Assembly: GCA_018302605.1 (NCBI GenBank)
Contig: JAGVZN010000019.1
Coordinates: forward strand, 29,803-93,802
Direction: 5' to 3'
DNA: 64,000 bases
From: Candidatus Woesearchaeota archaeon
GTDB taxonomy: Archaea; Nanobdellota; Nanobdellia; Woesearchaeales; GW2011-AR9
Positions 13,552 to 29,978 of the stretch are shown here, piece after piece (the first letter of the stretch is position 1; each line of letters begins with the position of its first letter). The notes under the pieces are model-generated. The model searched no databases, was not told the origin of the DNA, and saw only the letters and a list, made by a program, of their open reading frames with translations. The translations under genes and the position numbers were made by a program.

Positions 13552-15177
13552 ATGTTTTTTAACAATTTTTATAACCCCCACGCAAGATTCAGGGGAATTG
13601 TGGAAAAAAGTGACGAGAACGAAATGATAATTGCAAACGAAGATCAAAAGAAAGATCTGCAGAACATAGCAAAAGGAGCTGGATTCCTTTTTGCCGGCAC
13701 TTTGATGGTCTATGTTTTAAAATTCTTCTATCGGTTACTTGTATCTCGTTATCTCGGGCCCAGTGATTACGGCCTTCTTTCATTAGGAGAAGCAATCGCT
13801 AATGTTGCGATCATCTTCACAACTCTTGGATTAAGTTTTGGCATCATCAAACTTATCCCCCATTATCTCAGTAGAGACGATCCTGCACGAGTACGCGGGA
13901 TGATTTTGGCTATTCTCAAGATTAGTGGACTGATGAGCATCTTCGTCGCCATCGTAACCATCCTCTTCTCACAATATATTGCCATCGGCATCTTTCATAA
14001 GCCATTATTTGTACCGATCATAATCATCACCGCCATCACCATCCCCTTCTTTACGGTCACCAATTCCATCTCAAATATTTTCCTCGCTTTTCAGAGAGTG
14101 AATTACCAGAATCTAATCAACGTTGCTGGACGAGGATTTATTCTCCTATTACTGACGGTAGTTGCGATTGCGTACGATGGAAAACTATTTTGGATAGCAG
14201 TTGCGTATCTTTTCTCTCACATCAGCTCATTGATCATAGGGCTCTACTTCCTTATCCGTAAAAAAATATTTATGATCAGCTCAGAAATTAAGCCCAAGTA
14301 CGAATACTATCAATTGATCAGTTTCTCTTTCCCCATCTTCCTGTCCGGCATCTTTGTACAGATCATGGGCTGGGTTGATACACTCTTTTTAAGTGCTTTA
14401 AAAGAAGCATCAGAGGTTGGGATCTACAACGCCGCCCTGCCGTTAGTCAGTACCCTCTCTATTTTTGTCTCTGTGGTTGGAAACATCTTCCTCCCCACCG
14501 CTTCAAGCCTGTATGCTAAAAACAAAACAGAAAAAGTTGCTGGCCTTTACGCCACCGTTTCCCGATGGACTTTCCTCTCCGGCCTGCCCATCATGTTATT
14601 CATGATTTTCTTTTCAAAACAGATTCTCACTATTTTGTTTGGTGCTGAATATCGGACAGGACATATTGCTCTCCAGATCTTGATCGGAGCGTACTTCTTA
14701 AGATTAAGCTTCGGGCCATCATCCCAAGCGTTGATGATGTTTAACGAGACAAAAAAAATATTTTATATCAATAGCTTCGCTGCCGTGGTAAATGTCATCC
14801 TCAATTATCTCCTCATCCCGCCTTATTCTATGATGGGGGCTGCCATCGCAACGACAGGGTCGATCATCATCCAAGAAGGGTTGATCTTCTGGATTGCGAA
14901 AAAGAAATTGGGCTTTGTCTTCTCCCTGAAAATGTATGCCCGCTACCTCCTCAGCGGCCTCATAGGAATAAGCATTATCTACTGGATGTCAACTCACATG
15001 TCCACCAATGCTTTGACAATCAGTGTGTTAGCTCTAACATACTCCACAATGTATTTTATAATGCTGATCATGCTGGGGGGATTCAGAGAAGAAGATTTGG
15101 TAATTATTCAGGCAATAGAAAAAAAGTTTCACATAAATTTAAATATCTTAACGATGCTTATTAAGAGATTTCTATGA
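13552..15177 (+). CDS. Wzx-like oligosaccharide flippase (polysaccharide biosynthesis protein, MOP superfamily)
   Basis: 541 aa, about 14 predicted TM segments. Preceded by a CTATATAA box and an AGGAG-like element. Confidence 0.75.
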   Translation: MFFNNFYNPHARFRGIVEKSDENEMIIANEDQKKDLQNIAKGAGFLFAGTLMVYVLKFFYRLLVSRYLGPSDYGLLSLGEAIANVAIIFTTLGLSFGIIKLIPHYLSRDDPARVRGMILAILKISGLMSIFVAIVTILFSQYIAIGIFHKPLFVPIIIITAITIPFFTVTNSISNIFLAFQRVNYQNLINVAGRGFILLLLTVVAIAYDGKLFWIAVAYLFSHISSLIIGLYFLIRKKIFMISSEIKPKYEYYQLISFSFPIFLSGIFVQIMGWVDTLFLSALKEASEVGIYNAALPLVSTLSIFVSVVGNIFLPTASSLYAKNKTEKVAGLYATVSRWTFLSGLPIMLFMIFFSKQILTILFGAEYRTGHIALQILIGAYFLRLSFGPSSQALMMFNETKKIFYINSFAAVVNVILNYLLIPPYSMMGAAIATTGSIIIQEGLIFWIAKKKLGFVFSLKMYARYLLSGLIGISIIYWMSTHMSTNALTISVLALTYSTMYFIMLIMLGGFREEDLVIIQAIEKKFHINLNILTMLIKRFL

Positions 15178-16836: not shown

Positions 16837-17885
16837 TGAACCAAGAACAGAGATTGATTACAAAACGAGAAGAGTGGGAAGAGTTACTTGCCATCTTCGA
16901 AGTTAAAGAGAATCTTTTCTTAGATTTTCAAGTGAGTGATGGTCTTCGTAACTGTGATGTAGAGGTGTTTCGCTATGTGTACTATCCAGAAAATGATGCA
17001 GAAGAGAAGCCAACTGCAATCATCCAATGGAACATTGAGATCATCAAAGTACACAAAATTCTAGGAATTGCAAGGATTGCCTGCGGCTCACGTGAGGGGA
17101 ATGGTTTTTTTCATAAAGAATTAAGTATACCAGAACAGCAAATTTATTTGCAAAAATCTCTCAGGGAAACAATCAAACGATCAAAAAGAGGAATATCTTT
17201 ACTTCTCTTGCCAGTATACATCTCAATAGTCTCTGACTGCAAACGAGATATTCTTCCGCATAGCCTCGTCGAAGAAATTTTTTCTGTAGAACTAGACCTC
17301 TCACCATCGGTATTAGAATTAGAATCAAATTTTGACAAAAAGCGTCGGAATGGGATTCGAAAAGCACAAAAAAACGGTATTAGTACGAATATTGATAGAA
17401 CTAAAGAAGGACTCTCTTTCTTTTACGATCTCAAGAAATCACAATATTGGTCTGGTGATGAGAAGACTATTTGGACAAATAGGACAAAAGAAGCGTTTGG
17501 GGCTTACCATCAACGTGCAACAACAGTTGGTAAACATCTACTCTTCATTTCAAAGTACCAAAGAAATAACGTAGCATTTGCCAGTGTCTATTCTATCGAC
17601 AGAAAATTGTTCTACAAAGAGGGTGGTCTAGATAAATCATTTCAGGAATTTCGCCCTCTCGACAGGTTATTGATGGATGTAATCATATGGGGAAAAGAAC
17701 ATGGGTATACCTCTCTTGATTTTTGCGGAGCGAATTTTGATGAGGATAATAACCCCGATGCGAGAACAAAATTTAAGTTGCAGTTTGGCGCCATCCCTAA
17801 GCGATATTATCATTACCAGAAAATAACTCTTCCTTTCGCTGGAAAGAGAACGCCGTTACTCTTTACCCGTCTCTTGACAAAGTAA
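16833..17885 (+). CDS. FemAB-family / GNAT-fold acyl(aminoacyl)transferase
   Basis: 350 aa with internal duplication typical of FemAB / BioF2-like acetyltransferase domains. Confidence 0.5.
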   Translation: MMNQEQRLITKREEWEELLAIFEVKENLFLDFQVSDGLRNCDVEVFRYVYYPENDAEEKPTAIIQWNIEIIKVHKILGIARIACGSREGNGFFHKELSIPEQQIYLQKSLRETIKRSKRGISLLLLPVYISIVSDCKRDILPHSLVEEIFSVELDLSPSVLELESNFDKKRRNGIRKAQKNGISTNIDRTKEGLSFFYDLKKSQYWSGDEKTIWTNRTKEAFGAYHQRATTVGKHLLFISKYQRNNVAFASVYSIDRKLFYKEGGLDKSFQEFRPLDRLLMDVIIWGKEHGYTSLDFCGANFDEDNNPDARTKFKLQFGAIPKRYYHYQKITLPFAGKRTPLLFTRLLTK

Positions 17886-18509
17886 AGAGACGATTTTTCC
17901 CGCAAGATACACCAAACGTTTCTCGGGGAGCAAAACTTTCCTAATTGGCTTCATCTTAACGAATTCTTCTTTCGTCAGATGATCATAATGAATTTGCTTC
18001 TTGCCGAAAGTGCTATCGACAATAGAAGGTTGTCCCAGATCGCCGCGAAAAGGGAATAGTTTGAGATGGAGATGCTCTTTTTTCTCTTGCCAGGTTGTGC
18101 ATTTGCCATAGGCCGCAACGGCCGCGCCCGTTTCACGTGTCGGTGAGACTGCTTTAAATTCTGGCTGTTCTTCGGCCATAATCATCGTCATTGCCGCATT
18201 CAGCTTGCCAAAAGCAAGACCATAATTCTTTGCAAGTTTAGGATTCCCTGCCAGTTGAGCAAAATGAGAAAAATGTCCGAAGGTCATCAGTTGTACTGTA
18301 AAATCTCGCTGAGGATCCCCCCCCGTCTGGGGGGATAATGTTGCAAACCAGCCATTGTCAATGGAATCGCCGATGCGAAAGATGACAACCGCATTATATT
18401 TTGTCCGCGTTCCGATGGGCAACATTGCTTCTTGGCACCAAACGCAATTTTCTTGGAGAGAACTGTCTTCGGCTAAGAGAATTTTTAATTGCTGTACCGT
18501 ATTATGCAT
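17856..18509 (-). CDS. HIT-superfamily (GalT-branch-like) nucleotidyl transferase/hydrolase-like protein
   Basis: N-terminal Zn-knuckle CVWC plus HLHLKL histidine motif; paralog of the divergent 18571-19206 gene. Confidence 0.45.
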   Translation of the reverse strand: MHNTVQQLKILLAEDSSLQENCVWCQEAMLPIGTRTKYNAVVIFRIGDSIDNGWFATLSPQTGGDPQRDFTVQLMTFGHFSHFAQLAGNPKLAKNYGLAFGKLNAAMTMIMAEEQPEFKAVSPTRETGAAVAAYGKCTTWQEKKEHLHLKLFPFRGDLGQPSIVDSTFGKKQIHYDHLTKEEFVKMKPIRKVLLPEKRLVYLAGKIVSLLCQETGKE

Positions 18510-18570
18510 AAATCATCTAACATCAAAAATGCCGTAACATTTATAAAAGATGTGAAAGCAAAATGTTCTT

Positions 18571-19206
18571 ATGACACTTAATGACTTGTTAGGACAAGCA
18601 ACTACAACCAGTAGCGACTGTGTCTTTTGTGATTTCTCCACAGCCGATGTCGGAGAGAAAGATAGCCGCGGCGCAGTGAAAGTATTTCAAACTGGTTCTG
18701 GTTTAGGGCAGGATTGGTATGGTATCCTCCAAACAAGTGTGATCTCCGATCCAAAGAGTGGTTTTCAACTGCTACTTGTCCCTTTAGGTCATATTCAATC
18801 CTTTGCTGAAATCGCTAAGGACATACGATTAGCAGAAAATTATGGAATTGCAACGGCACGATTGAGCTTAGCGATGCAAAGAATCCGAGAAGAAGAATAT
18901 GCCGGTACAGACACATTTACGCCCGGTCAAATCATCTATGGAAAATGTCATACTCCCCAGAACTCACAATCTCATCTTCATTTAAAACTGGATGAATTTA
19001 GTGGGGGTTTAGCACAAGCATTTCCTACAGACCGGGGATGGATCGGAAAGCCCACCCATTACATCAACGAACCGATATTTGGGATATCAATGCAAGTAAG
19101 CGATACATACGTCAGAGCACGACCAGTCACAACCGCAAAATTAGAGTTGGAACGCATCACCGCTCTAGCTGATCGGTTGATTAACTATGCTAAAAGATCA
19201 ATTTAA
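18571..19206 (+). CDS. HIT-superfamily (GalT-branch-like) nucleotidyl transferase/hydrolase-like protein
   Basis: CVFCDF plus HLHLKL motif; paralog of 17856-18509. Confidence 0.45.
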   Translation: MTLNDLLGQATTTSSDCVFCDFSTADVGEKDSRGAVKVFQTGSGLGQDWYGILQTSVISDPKSGFQLLLVPLGHIQSFAEIAKDIRLAENYGIATARLSLAMQRIREEEYAGTDTFTPGQIIYGKCHTPQNSQSHLHLKLDEFSGGLAQAFPTDRGWIGKPTHYINEPIFGISMQVSDTYVRARPVTTAKLELERITALADRLINYAKRSI

Positions 19207-20266
19207 TATATTCCTTCTCCCTTCTCTCATCAAGATAAGCATCGAAATATCCAACAACAACACGGTAATAAAACTCTCCGTTCTCCTGATTAACTTTTTC
19301 CAACATCCCCGATGCTTCCATTTTTTCACCAGGAAAAGCGAGCATACAATAATCCCGGGAATAGAAAACAATCTTGGTGACTGGAACTTTTTCTTTTCCT
19401 TCACGCACTAGGGCATTACTGATCTGGTAACAGCCTGGCCTGACTACCGAACTAAAATTATCAACTACCGTCCCTTCCACAACGGCAGGGCCCAGAGAGG
19501 TGTATTTCTCCTCTCCCCATTTGAACCAGACTTCCTCTTCTTTTTCCGCTGCAAAGATCACAAACAGACTACCCTCAAAATAACCTTCCGTTTTTCGCCT
19601 CTTCATTGAATGCAAGAATTCTTTCTCACCAGAGATTGAGAAGCGATTGCGCTTCTTATGAAACACAAGCCACTCTTCATCTGTCTTCCAATGTAACAAC
19701 GGATGGGTTGCACGTTCGAGATAAGACATCAATTTCCAGAAGTTCTCTTTACCATACACCACAATATTAATATCTGAAATCGCAGGGTTATAATGACCCA
19801 TCAAAGTAGAATACGTTATCCCGAAATCTTTGATCCTCAGACCGCTTTGGAGGAGAAATTGAGAGAAAGAAAATACCCTCAAGAGATACTGGTCCAAAGA
19901 CGCTGGTGGCATAGACATGAGTTCTTTAAAGCCCCTACGCGGGAAATAAATTCGTTCAATCTTGTCGATCGGAATCGAAAAGAAAAGACGGTTCTGATCG
20001 TGAACAGGACTAGTATACACATAATTAGGATACGCTTCGCGAAAACGAGTGATATAGGCTCTCAATTCCTCTTTATCTGCCCACATATTCAGCCGATTCA
20101 TCTTTCGTCCCATGATGAAACGATACGCAAGAGCACTGCTCTCTACAGCTGTGGTAGGAATATATTTTGGCTTAACTAAAATAGAAGAAGAAGGATGTTC
20201 ATTACCATAGACTTGGCATTGCAGACCGTCTTTAGTGGTGATAATTGACGACTCATAAAAATGCAT
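19190..20266 (-). CDS. Pol-beta-superfamily nucleotidyltransferase-like protein (paralog of the C-terminal domain of the 1087-aa fusion)
   Basis: Central motif LMGHYNPAISDINIVVYG (G-x9-S-D-I-N). N-terminal ...IITTKDGLQCQVYGNEHPSS aligns with ...LITTKEGIQCKVYATHHPSG of the fusion. Start set at ATG 20264-20266 (MHFYESS), which has a GGAGGT Shine-Dalgarno 8 nt upstream; the track start at 20335 lacks one. Confidence 0.5.
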   Translation of the reverse strand: MHFYESSIITTKDGLQCQVYGNEHPSSSILVKPKYIPTTAVESSALAYRFIMGRKMNRLNMWADKEELRAYITRFREAYPNYVYTSPVHDQNRLFFSIPIDKIERIYFPRRGFKELMSMPPASLDQYLLRVFSFSQFLLQSGLRIKDFGITYSTLMGHYNPAISDINIVVYGKENFWKLMSYLERATHPLLHWKTDEEWLVFHKKRNRFSISGEKEFLHSMKRRKTEGYFEGSLFVIFAAEKEEEVWFKWGEEKYTSLGPAVVEGTVVDNFSSVVRPGCYQISNALVREGKEKVPVTKIVFYSRDYCMLAFPGEKMEASGMLEKVNQENGEFYYRVVVGYFDAYLDERREKEYIKLIF

Positions 20267-20291
20267 TTCTTCAAACCTCCGGTTACAACAT

Positions 20292-23200
20292 TCAATCGAG
20301 CAATGCTTTAAGGTATTCTTTTTCTCCTTGTTCATTGGTATACGTATTCATATAACCAATAACTAATTGATGAAACTCACGTCCTTTTGGTGTCGTCACT
20401 TTTTCCAGCAAGCCGCAGGCTTCTACTCTCTCCCCCTCTTTTGCTTGTAAAGCAAAAGGCCGCGACCAAAATACAATGCGTTCTATCGGGACCTCCTGAT
20501 AACCGTCCATAATTCTAGAGTTGGTAATTCCATAATAGCCCGGTCTGAGGTGAGAATAATTATAATCTCTCACGACACCCTGCACAGTGACTGTAGCCAA
20601 AGGCTCGTGCTTATCTTCCCAACCATACCAACCGGCAGTTCCCATCTCAACAACAAAGATTGAGAAGACATTCCCATCAAAAAAGCCGTCATCACGCTTT
20701 CGCACCATGTTATGAACGTATTCTTCTTCCGTAAACACTTTTGATACGACTCGATCTTTATAATAGCGAGCCCAATCCTCTCTCGACTTCCATTTTAAGA
20801 GAGGGTGCTGTACCATTTCCATATGTCTCAAGACCCGCCAGCCATTTTCGACACCAAAGATCAGAATATCGATGTCTGACTTTCCTGGAGTATAATTCCC
20901 CAACAACGTAGAATGGCTTATTCCCAGATCACTGACAGAAACCCCACTCTGTAAAATAAGATTAATGATCCCTCGTGTCGCTTTTAGGTAGGGATCTAAG
21001 TCTGCATCCGGAACTTTCATTAATTGCCGTAAACCAGCGCGCGGGTCATGAGTTGTTGCAATATCTGATTCAGGCACGGCAAAGAACCATTGCTGGTGAT
21101 GGGGGCAAGAATAGATTAATTGAGGAAAATTCCGTTCTACGATTGCCAGATTTTCTTTAACACTGTCTTTATCATTAAAGAGATTGAAACGAAATACACT
21201 TTTCTGAAAGAGAAAGCGTTTTTTTAGTTTCCTAAACGAATCTCCTCCCTGGAGTAAATCCTCAGGGATATATTTTGGTTTGATAATGACCCGTCCAGAT
21301 GGGTGGTGAGTAGCGTAGACTTTACATTGAATGCCTTCTTTAGTAGTAATTAACGATGATTCGGGATGGCGGGGGTAATGAACATCAATCGCTTTCCTCG
21401 GTTGAACAATCTCCATCTGTGCAGAAAGGTTATAGTTACTTTCCAATTCTTTCACTCTCTCATTAAAAATTGTGAGACACGATTGATGATAATCTGTTCT
21501 ACCAGCAGTAAGATTATCGACAAAACTGCGGACTTTCAGTAACTTTCCCTGAAGACGTATTTTTCTCTCTTGTTCCGGAAGTCCTAGCACATATTCCAGA
21601 TCCATCAAATCAGAAAATCGATCAAGAATCTCTGTGTTTACCACTTCACGCGGCGCGCCAATCAGGCGGGAGATATGTTCCCGATAGCGGGGGGGGAGGA
21701 GGGTGGGATGTGGATCACGGGAAATGGTCTTATCCTCCGTCAAGAGAGAAAGATTTTGGATAACCGTCGGATAACGCTGCAGAAAATGCTGTTGTGATAA
21801 ACTCTGAACATCAATCGAAGTATCTTCAATAACATCGTGTAACGCGGCAGTCAGGAGAGCTGAAACTTCCCTTTCACCGCAGGTGTAAAGCAATCTGACA
21901 AGATAGATCGAGTGAAAAACTAAAGGAGTGATACCATCATTCCTTTTCTGATTGCCAAATGCCGTTACGAGAAAATGAAAAACGTCTTTAAAGAAATCTT
22001 GCTGTTCACCAAAAGAATGCGCAACCTCATCCGCAGCTCGACTAACATCTTTCTGAAACAGTTCTTTAACCCGAACATAATCTGTACGTACCTCTTTTAA
22101 GATAGAATCTGATCCTAAAGCAATACGTGATTTTTCATCTAAGACCCGTGGAGGGATACTCGAAATCTCCTCTTCTCCAAAGCAATTGATCGGCTCAACA
22201 ACAATATCTTCAGGAACGGCAACATTCAAAGCAGTTAATATTGTTGGTGCGACCTGACGAATATCCACATCATTCATTAGTCCTCGTTTCTTAATTTCGG
22301 GTCCGTTAATGATAAAGAGGCCTTGCCGCGAATGCCCGGCGCTGTCCGCACCAATGGCTGTATGCCAGGAGTACAGACCTTCCTGCCCCAGATCAGGATT
22401 AGATGCCCAGCGTAGATCATCAAAATAGATCGTCAGATCGGGACATTCAGGATGAGAGGCATTCTGATAAATATCCTCGGCAGAGTAGACTTTGGTGTTA
22501 AGAGGATTGCCCTTATCATCGGGTATCTTTCGTATCTTCTCTGCAATTTCATCACGGATGTTTCTCCATTTATCTCCTGCTTTCTCTTTATTGATCTGGA
22601 TTCTCCCGTTATATGCCCCGCCTCCCCACGCTAAACTTCGTTCGCGATCAACAAGTTCCATCTTAAAACGCGTGCTCTTGCTAAGATCAACACTTTCTTT
22701 CAAGACGAGGTAGCCTTCTTTAATGAGCCAGTTGTTAATGTTGATCTTGCCTTCCTGTTTGATCATCCCATGATCTGATGCAACGATAACGGTGGTATCC
22801 TGCGGTAGAAGCTGTAGTACTTCCCCCAGTTTCTGATCAATATAAATGTAAAAATCTCTAATTGCATTTGCATGAGGAGAATTCACGATAAACCGACGAT
22901 GGCCTTCATCAAAATGGCGCCAGAGCATATGCTGCAGCCGGTCTGTTCCTAACATCACGGCCATACAGAAATTCCATTGTTTATGGGTGATCAAGTCTTT
23001 GAGGAGCGAGACCTGCATATCAGTCATCTCCATTGCTTTTTTGACAAGCTCTGCCGGATCAAGACTCTTATGGCCGCCGAGACCAACGGCAACATCAAAG
23101 AACCCCTCGGGATTGCCTAGTGCTTTGATCTTCTCTTTCAAATGTTCTGGATACGCACAGTTGCTTTCAATTCCTGGGGTCATGAAATCAGTGACGATAC

Positions 23201-23555
23201 AGCCGGGAAATGTCGTGACGGGATAGGAAAGGGGCACATAGAGGGCGATGCTCTTCTGATGTTCTTCTCCAATGATGTCCCAGATCAATCTTGCGTTATT
23301 GTTTTTGGAACTTACCAAACGGTAATCGCCTTGTTCGTCTTTGTAAGTATAATTAAATACCCCGATCTCGCTGGGATCTTTTCCCGAGATCATCGCATTC
23401 CAAGCAACAATCGTTGAAGGGGGGATGGTACTGTTCATCCGGGCATATGTCCCATTCTGCATCAGTTTCTTGATATTTGGCAGGAGATCATTCCAGCGTT
23501 CGAATACTAATTCGGGAACGCCGCCATCAATTCCAAATAAGAAGACTTTTCCCAT
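20292..23555 (-). CDS. three-domain fusion: alkaline-phosphatase-family phosphodiesterase/nucleotide pyrophosphatase + SpoT-type HD hydrolase domain + Pol-beta NTase-like domain
   Basis: N-terminal domain: VFLFGIDGG...STIPPSTIVAWNAMISG...VASDHGM (AP superfamily GxDG, T-P-x-S/T nucleophile, DHG). Middle: ITPLVFHSIYLV...LLTAALHDVIEDT (RelA/SpoT HD signature, near nt 21815-21860). C-terminal: LLGNYTPGKSDIDILIFG (near nt 20862-20890) plus sequence paralogous to the 19190-20266 protein. Confidence 0.7.
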   Translation of the reverse strand: MGKVFLFGIDGGVPELVFERWNDLLPNIKKLMQNGTYARMNSTIPPSTIVAWNAMISGKDPSEIGVFNYTYKDEQGDYRLVSSKNNNARLIWDIIGEEHQKSIALYVPLSYPVTTFPGCIVTDFMTPGIESNCAYPEHLKEKIKALGNPEGFFDVAVGLGGHKSLDPAELVKKAMEMTDMQVSLLKDLITHKQWNFCMAVMLGTDRLQHMLWRHFDEGHRRFIVNSPHANAIRDFYIYIDQKLGEVLQLLPQDTTVIVASDHGMIKQEGKININNWLIKEGYLVLKESVDLSKSTRFKMELVDRERSLAWGGGAYNGRIQINKEKAGDKWRNIRDEIAEKIRKIPDDKGNPLNTKVYSAEDIYQNASHPECPDLTIYFDDLRWASNPDLGQEGLYSWHTAIGADSAGHSRQGLFIINGPEIKKRGLMNDVDIRQVAPTILTALNVAVPEDIVVEPINCFGEEEISSIPPRVLDEKSRIALGSDSILKEVRTDYVRVKELFQKDVSRAADEVAHSFGEQQDFFKDVFHFLVTAFGNQKRNDGITPLVFHSIYLVRLLYTCGEREVSALLTAALHDVIEDTSIDVQSLSQQHFLQRYPTVIQNLSLLTEDKTISRDPHPTLLPPRYREHISRLIGAPREVVNTEILDRFSDLMDLEYVLGLPEQERKIRLQGKLLKVRSFVDNLTAGRTDYHQSCLTIFNERVKELESNYNLSAQMEIVQPRKAIDVHYPRHPESSLITTKEGIQCKVYATHHPSGRVIIKPKYIPEDLLQGGDSFRKLKKRFLFQKSVFRFNLFNDKDSVKENLAIVERNFPQLIYSCPHHQQWFFAVPESDIATTHDPRAGLRQLMKVPDADLDPYLKATRGIINLILQSGVSVSDLGISHSTLLGNYTPGKSDIDILIFGVENGWRVLRHMEMVQHPLLKWKSREDWARYYKDRVVSKVFTEEEYVHNMVRKRDDGFFDGNVFSIFVVEMGTAGWYGWEDKHEPLATVTVQGVVRDYNYSHLRPGYYGITNSRIMDGYQEVPIERIVFWSRPFALQAKEGERVEACGLLEKVTTPKGREFHQLVIGYMNTYTNEQGEKEYLKALLD

Positions 23556-23702
23556 TATTGATTTACACCCATAGTATCTGTATGGTAGATAATGCCTTTT
23601 AAAGATTGTGAAATGAGAACAAACAAGATGGCAACTCCAGCGGAGAGTATATTATACCAAAAATCCATAGATTTCGAACAAAAATCTTTGGATTCTGGTA
23701 TA

Positions 23703-23740
23703 TACCAAAAAAATTAGGTTCGAAACCTAATTATTTTTTG
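23703..23740 (-). terminator. bidirectional hairpin terminator
   Basis: Perfect palindrome aattaggtt-cga-aacctaatt (23712-23732) flanked by T7 on the minus strand (revcomp of 23703-23711) and T6 on the plus strand (23734-23739); directly downstream of the 23756-24115 minus-strand gene. Confidence 0.55.
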
Positions 23741-23755
23741 GGATACGACAGATCA

Positions 23756-24115
23756 TTAACCCAAATAACCTAATTCTTCCAGACGTTTCTTAACATCTTC
23801 CTCGTCAGCCTCGCTATAGGCTCGGGAGGATTTTGTGTTAATATTTATAGAGGAAGAACTATTCCCAGCTCTTTCAAAAGCGAGTCTTTCCAGATACTCA
23901 TTTAAAATTCGTTCGACACATTGATCAACCGTAAGTCCCGCCGCCTGCGCAACGGCTCCCACCTTCTGTCGGACTTCATCTGAAAGTAGAATTACCCGTT
24001 CAGAAGAGTGAATTACCTGACAGAGAAGGAAAAGCTGGCGAACTAGCTCATCAGAAGATAATTTCCTCTCTACAGCCATCGTCTTTAACTGTTCAACAAA
24101 TGCATGTTCATCCAT
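23756..24115 (-). CDS. small RHH-like (CopG/Arc-type) protein with acidic C-terminal tail ending ...RLEELGYLG
   Basis: 119 aa. RVILLSDEVRQKVGAVAQAAGLTVDQCVERILNEYL fits the ribbon-helix-helix pattern. The last ~12 residues share a motif with the C-terminus of the adjacent 24127-25668 protein. Confidence 0.45.
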   Translation of the reverse strand: MDEHAFVEQLKTMAVERKLSSDELVRQLFLLCQVIHSSERVILLSDEVRQKVGAVAQAAGLTVDQCVERILNEYLERLAFERAGNSSSSININTKSSRAYSEADEEDVKKRLEELGYLG

Positions 24116-24126
24116 ATTTCGTTCAC

Positions 24127-25668
24127 CTACCCCAAATAACCTAAATCTTCCAGACGCTGGATCACTTCCTGTTCACCTTTCTTTTCATCAAAATCACTCT
24201 TTTCCACTTGTTTTTCCGTCTGGTTTTTCTCCTCAAAAAAGCGTAAGATTATCTCATGAATGTCCATCAAAGAGTACTCCTCTTTTCCCAACGATTTCTG
24301 AGAAGAGATCAAGATTCCGTCGCTGTGATGGTCACCCGATTTAATCTTCCCTTCAGTTACTTTGTTAAAGAGTTGTGGGCAACGTACTGCGGTAATTGGC
24401 CAATGATGAAATGACCGATCAAACACCACTAGATCTGGAGCATCTTCAATGAAAGGCCCGTGAAAAAGCTCCTCTTTCTTTCTGATCACGAGTTCCCCAC
24501 CCGGGATCTTAATTTTCCGAAGAGACTCAATGACCTCTTCCCTGACATGATGATACTCCTCTTTTGTAACAGAACCTTGTTCTTCGCTATCATCATTAAT
24601 GTAAATGAACCCTTGATCAATCGCCGAGAACGCTTTTGTTTTCTTAAAATCAATCATTCCTTGACGAATCGCAGTATACCAACTTATTCCGTTGGCATCA
24701 GGGATAAGATCGCCAAGACCACTGCCTCTAAACCGAGAATAAACCAGTTTTTTGAGATGAAGAGTAGATAGAATTTTCTCCACTGACGTCTTATTGATTC
24801 CAAAGAAAGATAAGACTTTCTGTGGGCCTTTGCTGCGACCATGAACTGCTAAAAAACCTTGATCTTCCAACCACTTGTTTAACGCAAACGTACCGTGTAG
24901 GCTGGTAAACCCATGATCGCTGACAATCATTACTTCTACATCTTCCCCGACGACTTTCAAGAAGCTACCAATCAACGAATCGAGATAGGCAAAATAATCA
25001 TAAATCTTCTCCTCATATTTGTTACTAGAATAAAGAGGACTGGAATGATCAATATACTTTATCATGTTGTGAAGAAGAGAATCAGTGTTCGTCTCCACCA
25101 ACATGAACAGGTCTGGTTTTTGCTTAAGATATAACTTTGTCGCAATCGAAAAGCGCAACTCCGAAAGATGAAAGATCCGCCTAAGAAAATCATCATCATT
25201 ATTCCAACTCACACTGAACGCAAAATCTTTTAATTCTAATTCTATCTCTTTCTTAAGCTCGGCTGGATAAAGAAAATCGGATGCGCCCGTGGGGGTAAAT
25301 AACCCTGACATCATGAAACCATTCAACGGTTTAACGGGATACGTCCCGGGGATATTCATGATCCCACACTTCACATCAAGACCCTCCCAAAAAGGAACAA
25401 AATTATGAACCGGGCGGATAGTTTTATCATATCCTTTCTTAGAGAAAAGAGTGAAACAACCCAATTCCCCCGGATTCTTCCCCGAAACTAAACTCAACCA
25501 CGCAGGAATACTGACCGGAGGAGTCACGCTCTTTAACGTAGCGAAAAGACCATGATCGATGACTTTTTTGATCGTTGGGATCTTTTCTTGCGCCAGTAAT
25601 TCTTTAATCAGCCAGGGACTTACCCCATCTAGACCAATAATAACAAGTTTAGGCATTATCTTAACCAA
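24127..25668 (-). CDS. alkaline-phosphatase-superfamily type I phosphodiesterase / nucleotide pyrophosphatase family protein
   Basis: PKLVIIGLDGVSPW ... SVTPPVSIPAWLSLVSG ... MIVSDHGF; C-terminal ...IQRLEDLGYLG. Confidence 0.75.
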   Translation of the reverse strand: MVKIMPKLVIIGLDGVSPWLIKELLAQEKIPTIKKVIDHGLFATLKSVTPPVSIPAWLSLVSGKNPGELGCFTLFSKKGYDKTIRPVHNFVPFWEGLDVKCGIMNIPGTYPVKPLNGFMMSGLFTPTGASDFLYPAELKKEIELELKDFAFSVSWNNDDDFLRRIFHLSELRFSIATKLYLKQKPDLFMLVETNTDSLLHNMIKYIDHSSPLYSSNKYEEKIYDYFAYLDSLIGSFLKVVGEDVEVMIVSDHGFTSLHGTFALNKWLEDQGFLAVHGRSKGPQKVLSFFGINKTSVEKILSTLHLKKLVYSRFRGSGLGDLIPDANGISWYTAIRQGMIDFKKTKAFSAIDQGFIYINDDSEEQGSVTKEEYHHVREEVIESLRKIKIPGGELVIRKKEELFHGPFIEDAPDLVVFDRSFHHWPITAVRCPQLFNKVTEGKIKSGDHHSDGILISSQKSLGKEEYSLMDIHEIILRFFEEKNQTEKQVEKSDFDEKKGEQEVIQRLEDLGYLG

Positions 25669-25789
25669 AAAACGACTTCTTATAAAGGTTGTTAAAATAG
25701 ATTCATTTTAGATCACAGAACATTTTATCACAGAAAAATATGTACATTGTTTCAGAAGATATTTAAAAAGAGGTCATTATTCTGCAGGG

Positions 25790-27293: not shown

Positions 27294-28415
27294 ATGACAT
27301 CAATTATCTATTGTAAGAAGTGTGTACAGCCAAATACGCGGCCAAATATCAAATTCGATGACGAAGGTATTTGCCCGGCATGCCAATACGTAGAGAAAAT
27401 CCCAAATATTGATTGGAAAGCAAGAAAAGAAGAACTAAAAGAGATCATTAAAACGTGTAAGAGAGAAAATGTTTCCGGATACGATTGTATCATCGGAGTC
27501 AGCGGTGGAAAAGATAGTACACGCCAAGTGATGTATGTAAAAGAATTAGGTCTTAAACCGCTACTCGTTTCCTGTACCTACCCACCTGAACAGCAATCAG
27601 AGAGAGGAGCGCATAATCTCGGCAACATGATCTCCCTTGGATTTGATACGATCACGATCAGCCCTGCTCCTGAGACCTGGAAAAAGATGATGAAACAGGG
27701 TTTCTTCAAGTACGGAAACATCTTCAAATCAACAGAAATGCCCTTGTTTGCGAGTGTCCCGAAAGTTGCCATTGCCTATCATATTCCTCTCATCCTGTGG
27801 GGAGAGAATCCAGCAACACAAATCGGAGAACTGGGAGCCGGATCTCTAGATTGGAATGGAAATAACCTTAAGCGGGCCAATACCATTGCCAGCGGACCCA
27901 GTGTCCTTTTTCAGGAGACTATTTCAAAAAAAGATACTTTGTGGTATCATTATCCTGAAGACTGGGAGATGGAAGCCGCAAACTTGCAGATTGTCTACCT
28001 CGGATATTTTATGGGTGATTGGAGCAAGACAAATAATGCGAATTTTTCCATTGCGCACGGGATCGAGATACGCGATGATACTTCAGAGGAAATGGGAGCG
28101 TTGCATCCTTTCGAATCTCTAGACGAAGATTTTGTTTTTGTCAACCAGATGATGAAATATCTTAAATTTGGATTTGGAAAAGTCACAGATGAGGTCTGTG
28201 AACTTATTCGCGCCGATAAAATGACCCGAGAAGAAGGAATCGAACTAGTTAGAAAATATGAGGGGAAATGTGCTCGAAAATATATCATTCAATTTTGTAA
28301 ATACCTGGAGATCACGGAAGAGCAGTTCTGGAAAGTTGCCGAATCTTTTCGAAATCGCGAGATCTGGCACCAAGATGGAAAAAGAAACTGGAAACTGAAA
28401 AATCAAATATTGTAA
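27294..28415 (+). CDS. N-acetyl sugar amidotransferase (WbuX / PseA / AglX-like, PP-loop ATP pyrophosphatase)
   Basis: N-terminal Zn-ribbon CKKCVQPNTRPNIKFDDEGICPACQY then PP-loop YDCIIGVSGGKDSTRQV. Confidence 0.8.
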   Translation: MTSIIYCKKCVQPNTRPNIKFDDEGICPACQYVEKIPNIDWKARKEELKEIIKTCKRENVSGYDCIIGVSGGKDSTRQVMYVKELGLKPLLVSCTYPPEQQSERGAHNLGNMISLGFDTITISPAPETWKKMMKQGFFKYGNIFKSTEMPLFASVPKVAIAYHIPLILWGENPATQIGELGAGSLDWNGNNLKRANTIASGPSVLFQETISKKDTLWYHYPEDWEMEAANLQIVYLGYFMGDWSKTNNANFSIAHGIEIRDDTSEEMGALHPFESLDEDFVFVNQMMKYLKFGFGKVTDEVCELIRADKMTREEGIELVRKYEGKCARKYIIQFCKYLEITEEQFWKVAESFRNREIWHQDGKRNWKLKNQIL

Positions 28416-28420
28416 GAAAA

Positions 28421-29101
28421 ATGGAAGAAGAACAAAACAAAAACAGCACAAAAGATACCAAGAAGCACGATATTTTAGTGATAGATTATCATGTGGGGAA
28501 CCATCGTTCAGTCCTTAATGCCCTTTCTCTTCTGGGATATCACTACAAAGTTTCCAGCGAGAAAGAGGAGATCGCAAAAGCACCAGCATACATTCTGCCC
28601 GGGGTTGGAGCGTTTAGTGAGGCAATGACTAATCTTCAGAATCTGGGAATTATTGATACACTCAAAGAGCAAATTCTTAACCATAAAAAGCCTATACTGG
28701 GAATCTGTTTGGGGATGCAAGTATTGGCAGAAAGTTCAACAGAAAATGGTTTCCATAAAGGTCTCGGCATCATCAAAGGGAGTGTGATGAGGATCGATTC
28801 TCACAAAGATATTAAAATACCCCACGTAGGATGGAATAATCTATCCATCCATCAAAAAGACCCGCTATTCACAAGAACAGATGAGGAAGCACACTTTTAT
28901 TTTGATCACAGTTATCATATTGCCTGTGATCATTCCATTATTTCCGCGACGTGTACCCATGGAAGCGAGATCACCGCAGCAATCCAATCAGACAACATAT
29001 TTGGAGTGCAATTCCACCCAGAAAAAAGCCAAAAAAATGGATTGCTCTTACTGAGAGGCTTTTTTAATTACATCAAACAGAGGGAAAGTAAAAATGCTTA
29101 A
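28421..29101 (+). CDS. HisH-like class I glutamine amidotransferase (WbuY / AglY-like)
   Basis: ILVIDYHVGNHRSV ... LPGVGAFSEAM ... ILGICLGMQVLAE (GATase triad region). Confidence 0.8.
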   Translation: MEEEQNKNSTKDTKKHDILVIDYHVGNHRSVLNALSLLGYHYKVSSEKEEIAKAPAYILPGVGAFSEAMTNLQNLGIIDTLKEQILNHKKPILGICLGMQVLAESSTENGFHKGLGIIKGSVMRIDSHKDIKIPHVGWNNLSIHQKDPLFTRTDEEAHFYFDHSYHIACDHSIISATCTHGSEITAAIQSDNIFGVQFHPEKSQKNGLLLLRGFFNYIKQRESKNA

Positions 29102-29978
29102 ACATCGATTGGTTGCCTGCCTCACGCTTAAAGAAAGAATAATTGTGCAGAGTATTGGCTTCGAAAAATACCTGCCTATCGGAAGACCAGAGATTACTAT
29201 AGAATTTCTCAACAATTGGGGCATTGATGAGATTGTGGTACTAGACATAGATGCCACTCGAGAAAGCAGGCTTGTGGATATCGAACTCGTACAGAGAATT
29301 TCAAAGAAGTGTTTTGTCCCATTAACGGTTGGAGGAGGAATAACCACTGTTGAAGAAATGAAAGAGCTTATTCGCCAAGGTGCAGACAAGATTTGTATCA
29401 ATACCTCGGCAATCCAAAATCCTCCATTGATCAGAGAAGCATCACACGTATTAGGAAGTCAGTGTGTTGTCGTTTCTCTCGATGTCAAAAAGAATGGCCG
29501 TGGGGAATACGAAATATTTACTCACTCCGGAAAGAAAGCAACAGGGATAAATCCTCGAGATTTCGCCCAGAAAGCCGAAGCACTTGGGGCCGGAGAGATA
29601 TTTATCACTTCCATCACTCGAGATGGTTCGAAACAAGGATACGATCTTGAACTGATCAAAGAGATCTCTCGTGCGGTCTCCATTCCCGTTGTAGCCTGCG
29701 GGGGTGTAGGAAACCCATCTCATTTTGTCGAAGCAATCAGAGAAAGTACGGTCAGTGCCGTGGCCGCAGGAAATTATTTTCATTTTACGGAACACAGCCC
29801 GATGATTACAAAAGCATTTATCAGCAAATGCCCAGATGCAAAAATAAGATTTGACACTTATGCAGACTACCGCCACTTTTCGTTTATGAATGAGAAAATG
29901 ACCCATCGGATCGATAAGAAAGAAGACCAATATTTGAAAGATACCCGGTTCAAATATCATCCAAAGGAGGTCATATGA
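29094..29978 (+). CDS. HisF-like cyclase/synthase subunit (WbuZ / AglZ-like)
   Basis: DEIVVLDIDAT ... LTVGGGITTVEEM ... VVACGGVGNPSHF (HisF TIM-barrel phosphate-binding motifs). Confidence 0.8.
   Translation: MLKHRLVACLTLKERIIVQSIGFEKYLPIGRPEITIEFLNNWGIDEIVVLDIDATRESRLVDIELVQRISKKCFVPLTVGGGITTVEEMKELIRQGADKICINTSAIQNPPLIREASHVLGSQCVVVSLDVKKNGRGEYEIFTHSGKKATGINPRDFAQKAEALGAGEIFITSITRDGSKQGYDLELIKEISRAVSIPVVACGGVGNPSHFVEAIRESTVSAVAAGNYFHFTEHSPMITKAFISKCPDAKIRFDTYADYRHFSFMNEKMTHRIDKKEDQYLKDTRFKYHPKEVI

Follow-up and report, generated by a model that had tools for sequence, protein, structure and literature searches.

A six-gene nucleotide-enzyme block in a Woesearchaeota glycan island

We analyzed a 64-kb stretch of a Woesearchaeota metagenome-assembled genome (MAG), hereafter the window, the whole of which is a glycan-biosynthesis island carrying flippases, glycosyltransferases, NeuB, DegT aminotransferases, and similar genes. 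Our subject is a block at positions 17,856–25,668, in which a first-pass annotation had counted seven consecutive genes with nucleotide-handling folds; we find six open reading frames (ORFs) of at least 100 aa, designated A–F, that tile it. These encode two proteins related to the histidine triad (HIT) enzymes (A and B), a nucleotidyltransferase (NTase; C), a fusion protein ending in a second NTase (D), a small protein (E), and an alkaline phosphatase (AP)-superfamily phosphodiesterase (PDE; F). What the window carries here is one copy of an undescribed operon, conserved among DPANN archaea, in which known folds stand in a new arrangement. Related loci are referred to below by L or P numbers.

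A (HITa; 217 aa; 17856–18509, minus strand), a GalT-like HIT protein, overlaps the convergent gene upstream by 30 bp, and B (HITb; 211 aa; 18571–19206, plus strand), its paralog, is transcribed divergently from it. Both have the alpha+beta fold of HIT proteins and, as the first-pass annotation had proposed, they form a divergent pair of GalT-like paralogs: they are 30–31% identical, and B keeps every invariant column of the family, including the CxxC and HLHLKL motifs. In A the invariant residues are C22, C25, H79, G135-K136, H146-x-H148-x-K150, Q160, and D165, with C22, C25, H79, and H146 unchanged across 35 sequences of the family. C22, C25, H79, and H146-x-H148 may correspond to the zinc-site and nucleophile pattern of E. 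coli GalT, in which CxxC and two His, one being the first His of the active-site motif, form the zinc site. The classical triad, H-φ-H-φ-H-φ-φ, is absent; A reads H146-L-H148-L-K150-L, and this motif, with its invariant Lys at the third position, is closer to the H-x-H-x-Q of the GalT branch. From that branch (GalT, ADP-glucose phosphorylase, and the Ap4A phosphorylases with ADP-sulfurylase activity) the two proteins differ in having Lys in place of Gln or His, in consisting of a single 210-aa domain where the GalT core is duplicated, and in belonging to a family restricted to DPANN. Neither matched a Pfam HIT/GalT or NCBIfam model at E ≤ 0.01, and a profile of their family found no sequence relative in the PDB at E ≤ 10. 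A is 100% identical to a hypothetical protein of a Candidatus Woesearchaeota MAG. Orthologs of B were found only in the window, L001, L007, and L046.

C (NT2; 381 aa as the longest ORF; 19190–20335, minus strand) and the C-terminal domain of D (NT1; aa 731–1087; 20292–21365, minus strand) are paralogs, the last 357 residues of D being 38–39% identical to C. Both contain the palm fold of the Pol-beta NTase superfamily, which in NT2 is flanked by an N-terminal beta domain and a C-terminal oligonucleotide/oligosaccharide-binding (OB) fold. C is thus the Pol-beta-type NTase-like protein that had been claimed, with a variant motif. NT1 fits the superfamily motif hG[GS]x9-13 D-h-[DE]-h: it carries S-D-[IM]-D, the catalytic DxD (S-D-I-D in D), in 117 of 120 homologs, and its third carboxylate is an invariant Glu (E264 in the numbering of C). 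NT2 carries S-D-x-N (DxN; S-D-I-N in C) in 116 of 120 homologs and departs from the Pol-beta catalytic motif; judged by sequence, it appears to be a conserved variant or pseudo-enzyme. Searches recovered 347 homologs of C, 56–87% identical and all from DPANN archaea, and 199 of the C terminus of D; between DPANN classes, NT2 identity is 55–87%, a strong conservation. The homologs of C begin at Met24 of MHFYES (nt 20266), and residues 1–23 have a predicted local distance difference test score (pLDDT) below 50. Met24 is probably the true start, making the longest ORF 23 codons too long, and from this start C and the stop codon of D no longer overlap.

C had no match in Pfam, NCBIfam, PADLOC, or, by sequence, the PDB; a profile of the NT family likewise found no sequence relative in the PDB at E ≤ 10, and Foldseek returned no whole-chain match in the PDB for the NT2 model. 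Taken separately, the palm is best matched structurally by RNA-specific terminal transferases (GLD-2, TUT4, Cid1, and CutA), with cGAS-like receptors also among its matches, and the OB domain by SSB, RPA, Pot1, and the anticodon-binding OB domains of aminoacyl-tRNA synthetases (aaRSs).

D (1087 aa; 20292–23555, minus strand) has the three-part architecture attributed to it at the outset: an AP-superfamily phosphodiesterase domain (aa 1–470; 22146–23555), a SpoT/MESH1-type HD domain (aa ~471–730; 21366–22145), and NT1, all on the minus strand. Residues 4–385 match PF01663 (E 8.8e-36, 124.6 bits; gathering cut-off 23). The phosphodiesterase domain is orthologous to stand-alone 460-aa PDEs (55–58% identity), as NT1 is to stand-alone NT1 genes (59–62% identity). 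As a single sequence, the HD domain matched TIGR00691 at E 1.8e-4 and stayed below the Pfam and NCBIfam cut-offs. A profile (A6) of the middle region of D aligned with stand-alone HD homologs matched MESH1 (3nr1) at E 4.8e-9, Rel/SpoT hydrolase domains at 4e-7 to 1e-5, and also a (p)ppApp hydrolase; on these matches the SpoT-type assignment was correct. The HD signature H...HD...ED...D is invariant (H78, H103-D104, E107-D108, and D175), and homologs of the domain, stand-alone or fused, occur in L007, L030, L046, L052, L053, L055, L060, P0204, and P0212. With RelA/SpoT homologs and MESH1, D shares the type of HD domain, and with the RelA/SpoT homologs also its placement N-terminal to an NTase-fold domain. 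It differs from the latter in the NTase itself, which combines a Pol-beta GS/DxD signature with an OB fold; no RelA_SpoT synthetase domain was found in a Pfam scan of D. Also unlike those systems, the module's HD domain is interchangeable with PHP and CysQ-type monophosphatases at other loci.

F (513 aa; 24127–25668, minus strand) is the second AP-family phosphodiesterase (PF01663, E 1.5e-31, 110.7 bits; gathering cut-off 23), as had been claimed. Its identity to the module PDE is 28%, and the PDE2 genes of L001 and L003 are not its orthologs. Inspected by eye, the metal-ligand and Thr-nucleophile motifs (GxDG, TxPPxS, DxxxH, and SDHG) are kept in both D and F; no signal peptide is evident in the sequence of the D domain or of F, and we regard both as cytoplasmic. 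They share the family model and active-site motifs of the nucleotide pyrophosphatase/phosphodiesterase (NPP)-type enzymes but are remote from the ENPPs (E ~0.01), and they differ from NPP-type enzymes in that the D domain forms part of a fusion with HD and NTase domains and F bears a distinctive C-terminal tail, described next.

Between D and F lies E (119 aa; 23756–24115, minus strand). The small ORF is there, as previously annotated, but its likeness to ribbon-helix-helix (RHH) proteins is weak (E ~2e-3) and below curated cut-offs: PF07704 at E 2.2e-3 and 19.3 bits (cut-off 28.3), and a RelB-like NCBIfam model at E 2.4e-3 and 18 bits (cut-off 50). E and F, which are otherwise unrelated, share a C-terminal tail of the form ..(E/D)x(V)xxRL+xLGYL[DEG], reading ...RLEELGYLG in E (23756–23800) and ...RLEDLGYLG in F (24127–24170). 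Of 21 small ORFs in the RHH-like family, whose usual place is just ahead of a phosphodiesterase, 20 carry the tail, and so do two sulfatase-like AP-family proteins (L003, 15145–16605; L028, 5292–6485). It may be a docking or oligomerization peptide.

The 200-bp gap between E and D holds two tandem palindromic hairpins (23653–23741, assigned to no strand), recognized by fold energy and sequence. Both are centered on TTCGAA and flanked by A and T runs, one by A7/T7; the pair has a dG of −33.7 kcal/mol (z −4.9), and none of 200 shuffled sequences was equally stable. Rfam gave no match for the hairpins, nor any structured-RNA match in the block at E ≤ 0.1. They look like a terminator of the E–F unit; instead, or in addition, they could act as an operator in front of D to which the RHH-like protein would bind. 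Because the hairpins sit between E and D, F–E and D–C are probably separate transcription units. The first-pass annotation had ended the block in a clean bidirectional terminator: the hairpin structure exists, but at 23,653–23,741, inside the block and not at its end. A terminator at either end of the block was considered and rejected, as a consensus scan gave background (8 found versus 7.5 expected), and the gap near 25.7 kb (25,669–25,789) is a divergent promoter region.

The earlier impression that the arrangement is undescribed has stood up: no protein of the block matched PADLOC, A, B, and C lack Pfam and NCBIfam models, and both family profiles are without a PDB relative. We found no literature describing the module. 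The NT and HIT families are, as far as we could find, without a family model, a solved relative, or literature.

A conserved DPANN operon with exchangeable parts

We collected 69 related loci, mapped 67 with tblastn seeds, and clustered their ORFs all-against-all. Dereplication left 58, almost all from DPANN, so that the conservation of the gene neighborhood, which the first-pass annotation had put forward as a check, is borne out: the core operon recurs in these 58 loci. At its invariant core stand NT1, NT2, and HIT, in that order, and after them a nucleotide 3'-phosphoesterase. NT1 lies immediately upstream of NT2 in 54/54 evaluable loci, and an ortholog of HITa, normally directly after NT2, is present in 46/50. 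The phosphoesterase slot is filled by unrelated enzymes, being PHP in 39 loci, SpoT-like HD in 8, and CysQ/IMPase-type in 3; 49 of 50 evaluable loci carry at least one of the PHP, HD, and CysQ-type phosphoesterases. The PHP protein matches PDB 2yb1 (Cv1693), a 3',5'-bisphosphate nucleotidase, at E 8e-29, and no less closely 7ug9, a 5'-3' exoribonuclease (E 8e-30). Its best NCBIfam model is that of a 3',5'-nucleoside bisphosphate phosphatase (E 1e-57, below the equivalog cut-off), with the RNase RNM model equally close. The CysQ/IMPase-type enzyme matches PF00459 (E 1e-50). No PHP homolog was found in the window, where the HD domain, inserted between PDE and NT1, fills the functional slot of the PHP/CysQ-type phosphatases.

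Gene fusions tie these parts together repeatedly. NT2-HIT fusions of 536–582 aa recur; PDE is fused to NT1 in L005, L024, L045, and L049, PDE-HD-NT1 fusions occur in the window, L007, and L030, and HD-NT1 fusions in P0204 and P0212. The phosphoesterase also joins adenosine 5'-phosphosulfate (APS) kinase, as PHP-APS kinase in L012 and L041 and as CysQ-type/APS kinase fusions, found with either domain first, in L047 and L058, both of which are without PHP and HD. The APS kinase of the module is genuine (PF01583, E 9.5e-48; PDB 5cb6, E 4e-47), and the sulfotransferases adjoining the module belong to PF13469, PF00685, and PF03567.

The operon comes in two flavors. A PDE lies upstream of NT1 in 28/47 evaluable loci, and a small ORF bearing the LGYL tail precedes the PDE in 19/47; PDE-flavor loci usually hold at least two AP-superfamily enzymes. 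We compared the flavors in those 35 loci that are flanked to left and right by 6 kb or more, seeking APS kinase and sulfotransferase genes within 10 kb. All 16 loci without a PDE carry APS kinase (13) or a sulfotransferase, versus 4 of the 19 with a PDE upstream of NT1, where it usually follows the small ORF. Fisher's exact test gives p = 1.9e-6, which should not be read as a clean probability, since the loci are related. Overall, 16/35 loci carry APS kinase.

The commonest neighbors of the module are epimerases, flippases, and glycosyltransferase family 4 (GT4) genes, in 25–29 of 59 loci. That the block is embedded in a glycan island, as first described, is true of the window but not intrinsic to the module: in L004, a Diapherotrites scaffold, it stands amid S-layer, primase, PCNA, and replication/translation genes with APS kinase inside, a setting that marks the module as autonomous. 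Whatever its chemistry, the module is worth study for the non-homologous triple displacement among PHP, SpoT-HD, and CysQ, for the conserved pairing of active and variant NTase paralogs, and for its alternative output arms, AP-phosphodiesterase on the one hand and APS kinase with sulfotransferase on the other.

Candidate chemistries of the module

Relatives of the block stand beside, or are fused with, enzymes that make or recycle 3'-phosphoadenosine 5'-phosphosulfate (PAPS), and for this reason the module may be a source of an activated nucleotide donor with which surface sugars are decorated in a new way. The first-pass annotation had imagined that a small molecule linked to a nucleotide is made and turned over, either a signaling nucleotide or an activated glycan precursor. 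The general idea fits the roughly 58 DPANN loci, in many of which PAPS enzymes adjoin the core or are fused with it; the window itself has neither APS kinase nor sulfotransferase. Our preference, which we hold tentatively, is for a PAPS-type cycle producing an activated nucleotide donor for glycan decoration, in which gene context points to NT1, NT2, and HIT for the nucleotidyl-transfer chemistry. Given the constant 3'-phosphoesterase partner, an enzyme type that takes the 3'-(pyro)phosphate off nucleoside 5'-phosphates and is fused to APS kinase in four lineages, the PDE-less operon contains every activity of a PAPS cycle except sulfate adenylylation, and this flavor additionally encodes three uncharacterized nucleotide-transfer proteins. 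HIT enzymes are known to act on APS as hydrolases, phosphorylases, and catalysts of ammonolysis (PMC4613722). In Campylobacter jejuni, moreover, the glycan-island genes Cj1415–Cj1418 provide a CDP-phosphoramidate 3'-phosphate donor via a nucleotidyltransferase and an APS-kinase homolog (PMC11800397). It is this use of APS by HIT enzymes, the C. jejuni precedent, and the content of the operon that together lead us to favor a PAPS-type donor cycle. Taken over the whole module, the link to PAPS metabolism is strong; where the window alone is concerned, it is indirect.

With the canonical PAPS pathway (Sat/CysDN, CysC, sulfotransferase, and CysQ), the related loci share APS kinase, CysQ/PHP-type nucleotidases, and sulfotransferases in the core operon. 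They depart from it in that no Sat/CysDN was found near any locus (a weak test) and in that the NTase paralogs and HIT have no place there; the window, for its part, is without CysC, a 3'-phosphoadenosine 5'-phosphate (pAp) phosphatase of the PHP/CysQ type, and sulfotransferases. The O-methyl-phosphoramidate pathway of C. jejuni resembles the proposed cycle in using a PAPS-like, 3'-phosphorylated donor for sugar decoration. It differs in that no glutamine-kinase gene was recognized in our loci (the sequences of Cj1416–Cj1418 were not compared), in that the transferases adjoining the module belong to sulfotransferase families, and in that the module's NTase has a different fold.

Folds, motifs, fusions, and gene neighborhoods are observed; the scheme that we build on them infers what the activated group X is, which way each reaction runs, and that NT1 and NT2 might form a complex. 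The core would make and edit a 5'-activated nucleotide anhydride, NMP-X (NMP, nucleoside monophosphate), most plausibly adenylyl-sulfate or a close analog. NT1, possibly as a heterodimer with NT2, would transfer NMP from a nucleoside triphosphate, and HIT, through a covalent His-NMP intermediate, would serve as a second transferase or as an editor. Phosphorylation of the 3' position would come next, by the APS kinase that many relatives encode in the operon, and the donor would then be used by transferases that decorate surface glycans, with the HD, PHP, or CysQ enzyme converting the 3',5'-bisphosphate that is left over back to NMP. An accessory arm specific to the window's flavor would consist of the AP-type phosphodiesterases together with the small protein that bears the tail. 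In what is the least supported step, these phosphodiesterases could remove pyrophosphate and so pull the reaction, turn over the donor, or act as group transferases.

That NT1, NT2, and HIT form APS itself is possible but doubtful. We give an equally guarded hearing to the idea that NT1-NT2-HIT constitutes a third, non-homologous class of sulfate/oxyanion adenylyltransferase, in which a Pol-beta heterodimer and a GalT-like HIT protein would generate APS or a PAPS-like donor; a reaction forming APS could be pulled forward by the fused AP-type pyrophosphatase/phosphodiesterase or by the operonic APS kinase. Should the NT and HIT families supply nucleotide activation, they would provide a new enzymatic route to activated sulfate or a PAPS-like donor. 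This would shed light on the way in which episymbiotic archaea with reduced genomes modify their surface glycans, structures that probably play a central part in attachment to the host.

Several observations weigh against a PAPS-type cycle. The 64-kb window holds no APS kinase, sulfotransferase, or ATP sulfurylase anywhere, and none of seven HD-type loci carries a nearby APS kinase. Since APS kinase and sulfotransferase genes are rare in the PDE flavor, the PAPS link is transferred to the window from the other flavor; the locus counts behind it come from phylogenetically related, and hence non-independent, loci. The OB fold resembles nucleic-acid-binding OB folds and suits an RNA substrate better than sulfate. 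We know of no precedent for a Pol-beta NTase that adenylylates an oxyanion. We also considered a missing ATP sulfurylase as an argument in favor. No Sat-type Pfam match was found in the window, and Sat/CysN motifs (RNPxHxxH, GRDHAG, and CysN), searched as motif patterns, were absent from the window and from 1.16 Mb of loci, a survey limited to ±10-kb flanks. We rejected it as a firm argument, since some DPANN genomes and MAGs are reported to carry sat, cysC, cysN, or sulfate adenylyltransferase genes, which weakens it for module-bearing genomes.

The structural matches of the NT proteins bring into view a role in the healing, tailing, or repair of RNA ends, which we consider improbable. NT1 and NT2 would bind RNA through the OB domain and extend its 3' ends by further nucleotides; the HD, PHP, or CysQ-type enzyme would remove 3'-phosphates or 2',3'-cyclic phosphates or act as a 5'-3' nano-RNase; HIT would remove 5'-adenylates or cap-like structures, in the manner of aprataxin and DcpS; and the phosphodiesterase would degrade the products. 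This accords with the closeness of the palm to RNA-specific terminal transferases, with the resemblance of the OB domain to those of SSB, RPA, Pot1, and aaRS anticodon-binding domains, and with PHP being as near to exoribonuclease 7ug9 and the RNase RNM model as to a nucleotidase. The bacterial CCA-adding enzyme, too, combines a Pol-beta NTase with an HD phosphoesterase. An RNA substrate leaves unexplained, however, the recurrent fusion or adjacency of the module with genuine APS kinase, CysQ-type phosphatase, and sulfotransferases, as well as its frequent embedding in glycan islands.

Alarmone-like signaling, in which NT1 would make a 3'-phosphorylated or oligomeric nucleotide, HD/PHP, PDE, and HIT would degrade it, and the RHH-like protein would regulate the operon, strikes us as quite unlikely. 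The order of HD then NT1 in P0204, P0212, and the window mirrors the hydrolase-synthetase order of RelA/SpoT, and the HD domain is truly of the SpoT/MESH1 type; cGAS-like receptors are among the matches of the palm, and genes for APS kinase and sulfotransferase are largely lacking in the window's flavor. Signaling nucleotides are, moreover, broken down by NPP-type phosphodiesterases and by HIT enzymes. Set against this, there was no PADLOC match, no effector gene was recognized, and the core shares its operon with PAPS enzymes and sulfotransferases in the sister flavor; the module is, besides, an accessory operon, often found in glycan islands, and not a stress regulon.

A further possibility follows from the distant relatives of the NT proteins. 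In a profile search, 832 representatives at E ≤ 1e-3 outlined an archaeon-wide group of proteins of ~340–360 aa, whose distant members, ~25% identical, include ones from Methanococcus voltae and Vulcanisaeta. Their gene context was uninformative in Terraquivivens and M. voltae. In a Vulcanisaeta sp. (L069, 8001–10062; GCA_054654015.1), a distant member (profile E ~1e-33) overlaps a CitG-family gene in a cluster that also holds FTR, Fwd subunits, MCH, a 4HFCP_synth (PF04476) gene, ATP-grasp ligases, and Fae. This methanofuran/tetrahydromethanopterin (H4MPT)-type context suggests that the wider NT family takes part in the biosynthesis of such cofactors and suggests that it makes phosphodiester links in cofactor-like molecules.

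On that model, NT1 and NT2 would attach a phosphoribosyl- or nucleotide-linked group to a non-sulfate acceptor, for example a glycan-bound or lipid-bound phospho-alcohol, in a phosphodiester of the coenzyme or prosthetic-group type, with the AP-type enzymes as phospho-group transferases; we assign this a low probability. The archaeon-wide reach of the family and the Vulcanisaeta gene favor it, the latter recalling the logic by which CitG/MdcB works with the NTase-fold CitX/MdcG. So do the multiple AP-superfamily enzymes of PDE-flavor loci and the proteins related to CDP-alcohol phosphatidyltransferases that adjoin the module in 15 loci. The distant relatives are, though, only ~25% identical and differ in context, CitG is absent from the DPANN loci, and the constant 3'-phosphoesterase and the APS kinase fusions are not explained by this chemistry alone. 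An anti-phage defense system was dismissed, since none of the six proteins matched any PADLOC family at E ≤ 0.1. With these alternatives weighed, the PAPS-type donor cycle remains the reading that we favor for the module.

Neighboring genes and minor observations

Several other genes recur around the core. Directly upstream of NT1 in L033 (7539–8930), and also in L036, L044, and L056, all of the APS-kinase flavor, is a gene for a truncated pyruvate-kinase-like protein, which takes the position held by the phosphodiesterase in the other flavor. The L033 protein corresponds to the C-terminal two thirds of pyruvate kinase (TIGR01064, E 7.5e-55, below cut-off), and its N terminus is very weakly MarR-like (PF01047, E 0.007, below cut-off). 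The membrane protein related to CDP-alcohol phosphatidyltransferases is encoded at 14042–14878 in L036 and in 14 other loci, ~3.7 kb downstream of NT2, and in many loci its gene comes directly after APS kinase. It scores below cut-off with PF01066 (E 7e-4) and with an archaetidylinositol-phosphate synthase model (E 7e-12), and in one example the motif is degenerate (DNVNGEIAR...). A ~100-aa PQ-loop (semiSWEET-like) membrane protein lies between PDE and NT1 in an Aenigmatarchaeota locus (L006, 2296–2589), and a gene of this type is also near the module in L020, L038, and L045.

In L013, L043, and L063, where HIT is absent, a prolyl-tRNA synthetase (ProRS)-like gene occupies the HIT position between NT2 and PHP. 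Class II aaRSs and HIT enzymes alike handle adenylates. We nevertheless rejected a functional displacement of HIT, as the protein is near the ProRS equivalog (385 bits versus a cut-off of 437) and the gene is probably a housekeeping insertion.

Some of the loci carry unexpected record titles. L014, L027, L029–L034, L041, L044, L048, L054, L058, L059, and L063 are titled "uncultured Methanosarcinales archaeon," and L055 "Patescibacteria group bacterium." In these loci NT2 is 45–68% identical to the Woesearchaeota protein of the window, and the titles are probably taxonomic mislabels or MAG binning errors.

Finally, downstream of the block the window encodes a PP-loop protein, a class-I glutamine amidotransferase, and a HisF-like protein (27294–29978). 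The PP-loop protein has SGGKDS at 27501 and no Pfam match, and the trio presumably corresponds to a sugar amidotransferase set of the WbuX/WbuY/WbuZ type. Its position beside NeuB and DegT genes suggests an acetamidino-modified nonulosonic or amino sugar in the glycan.

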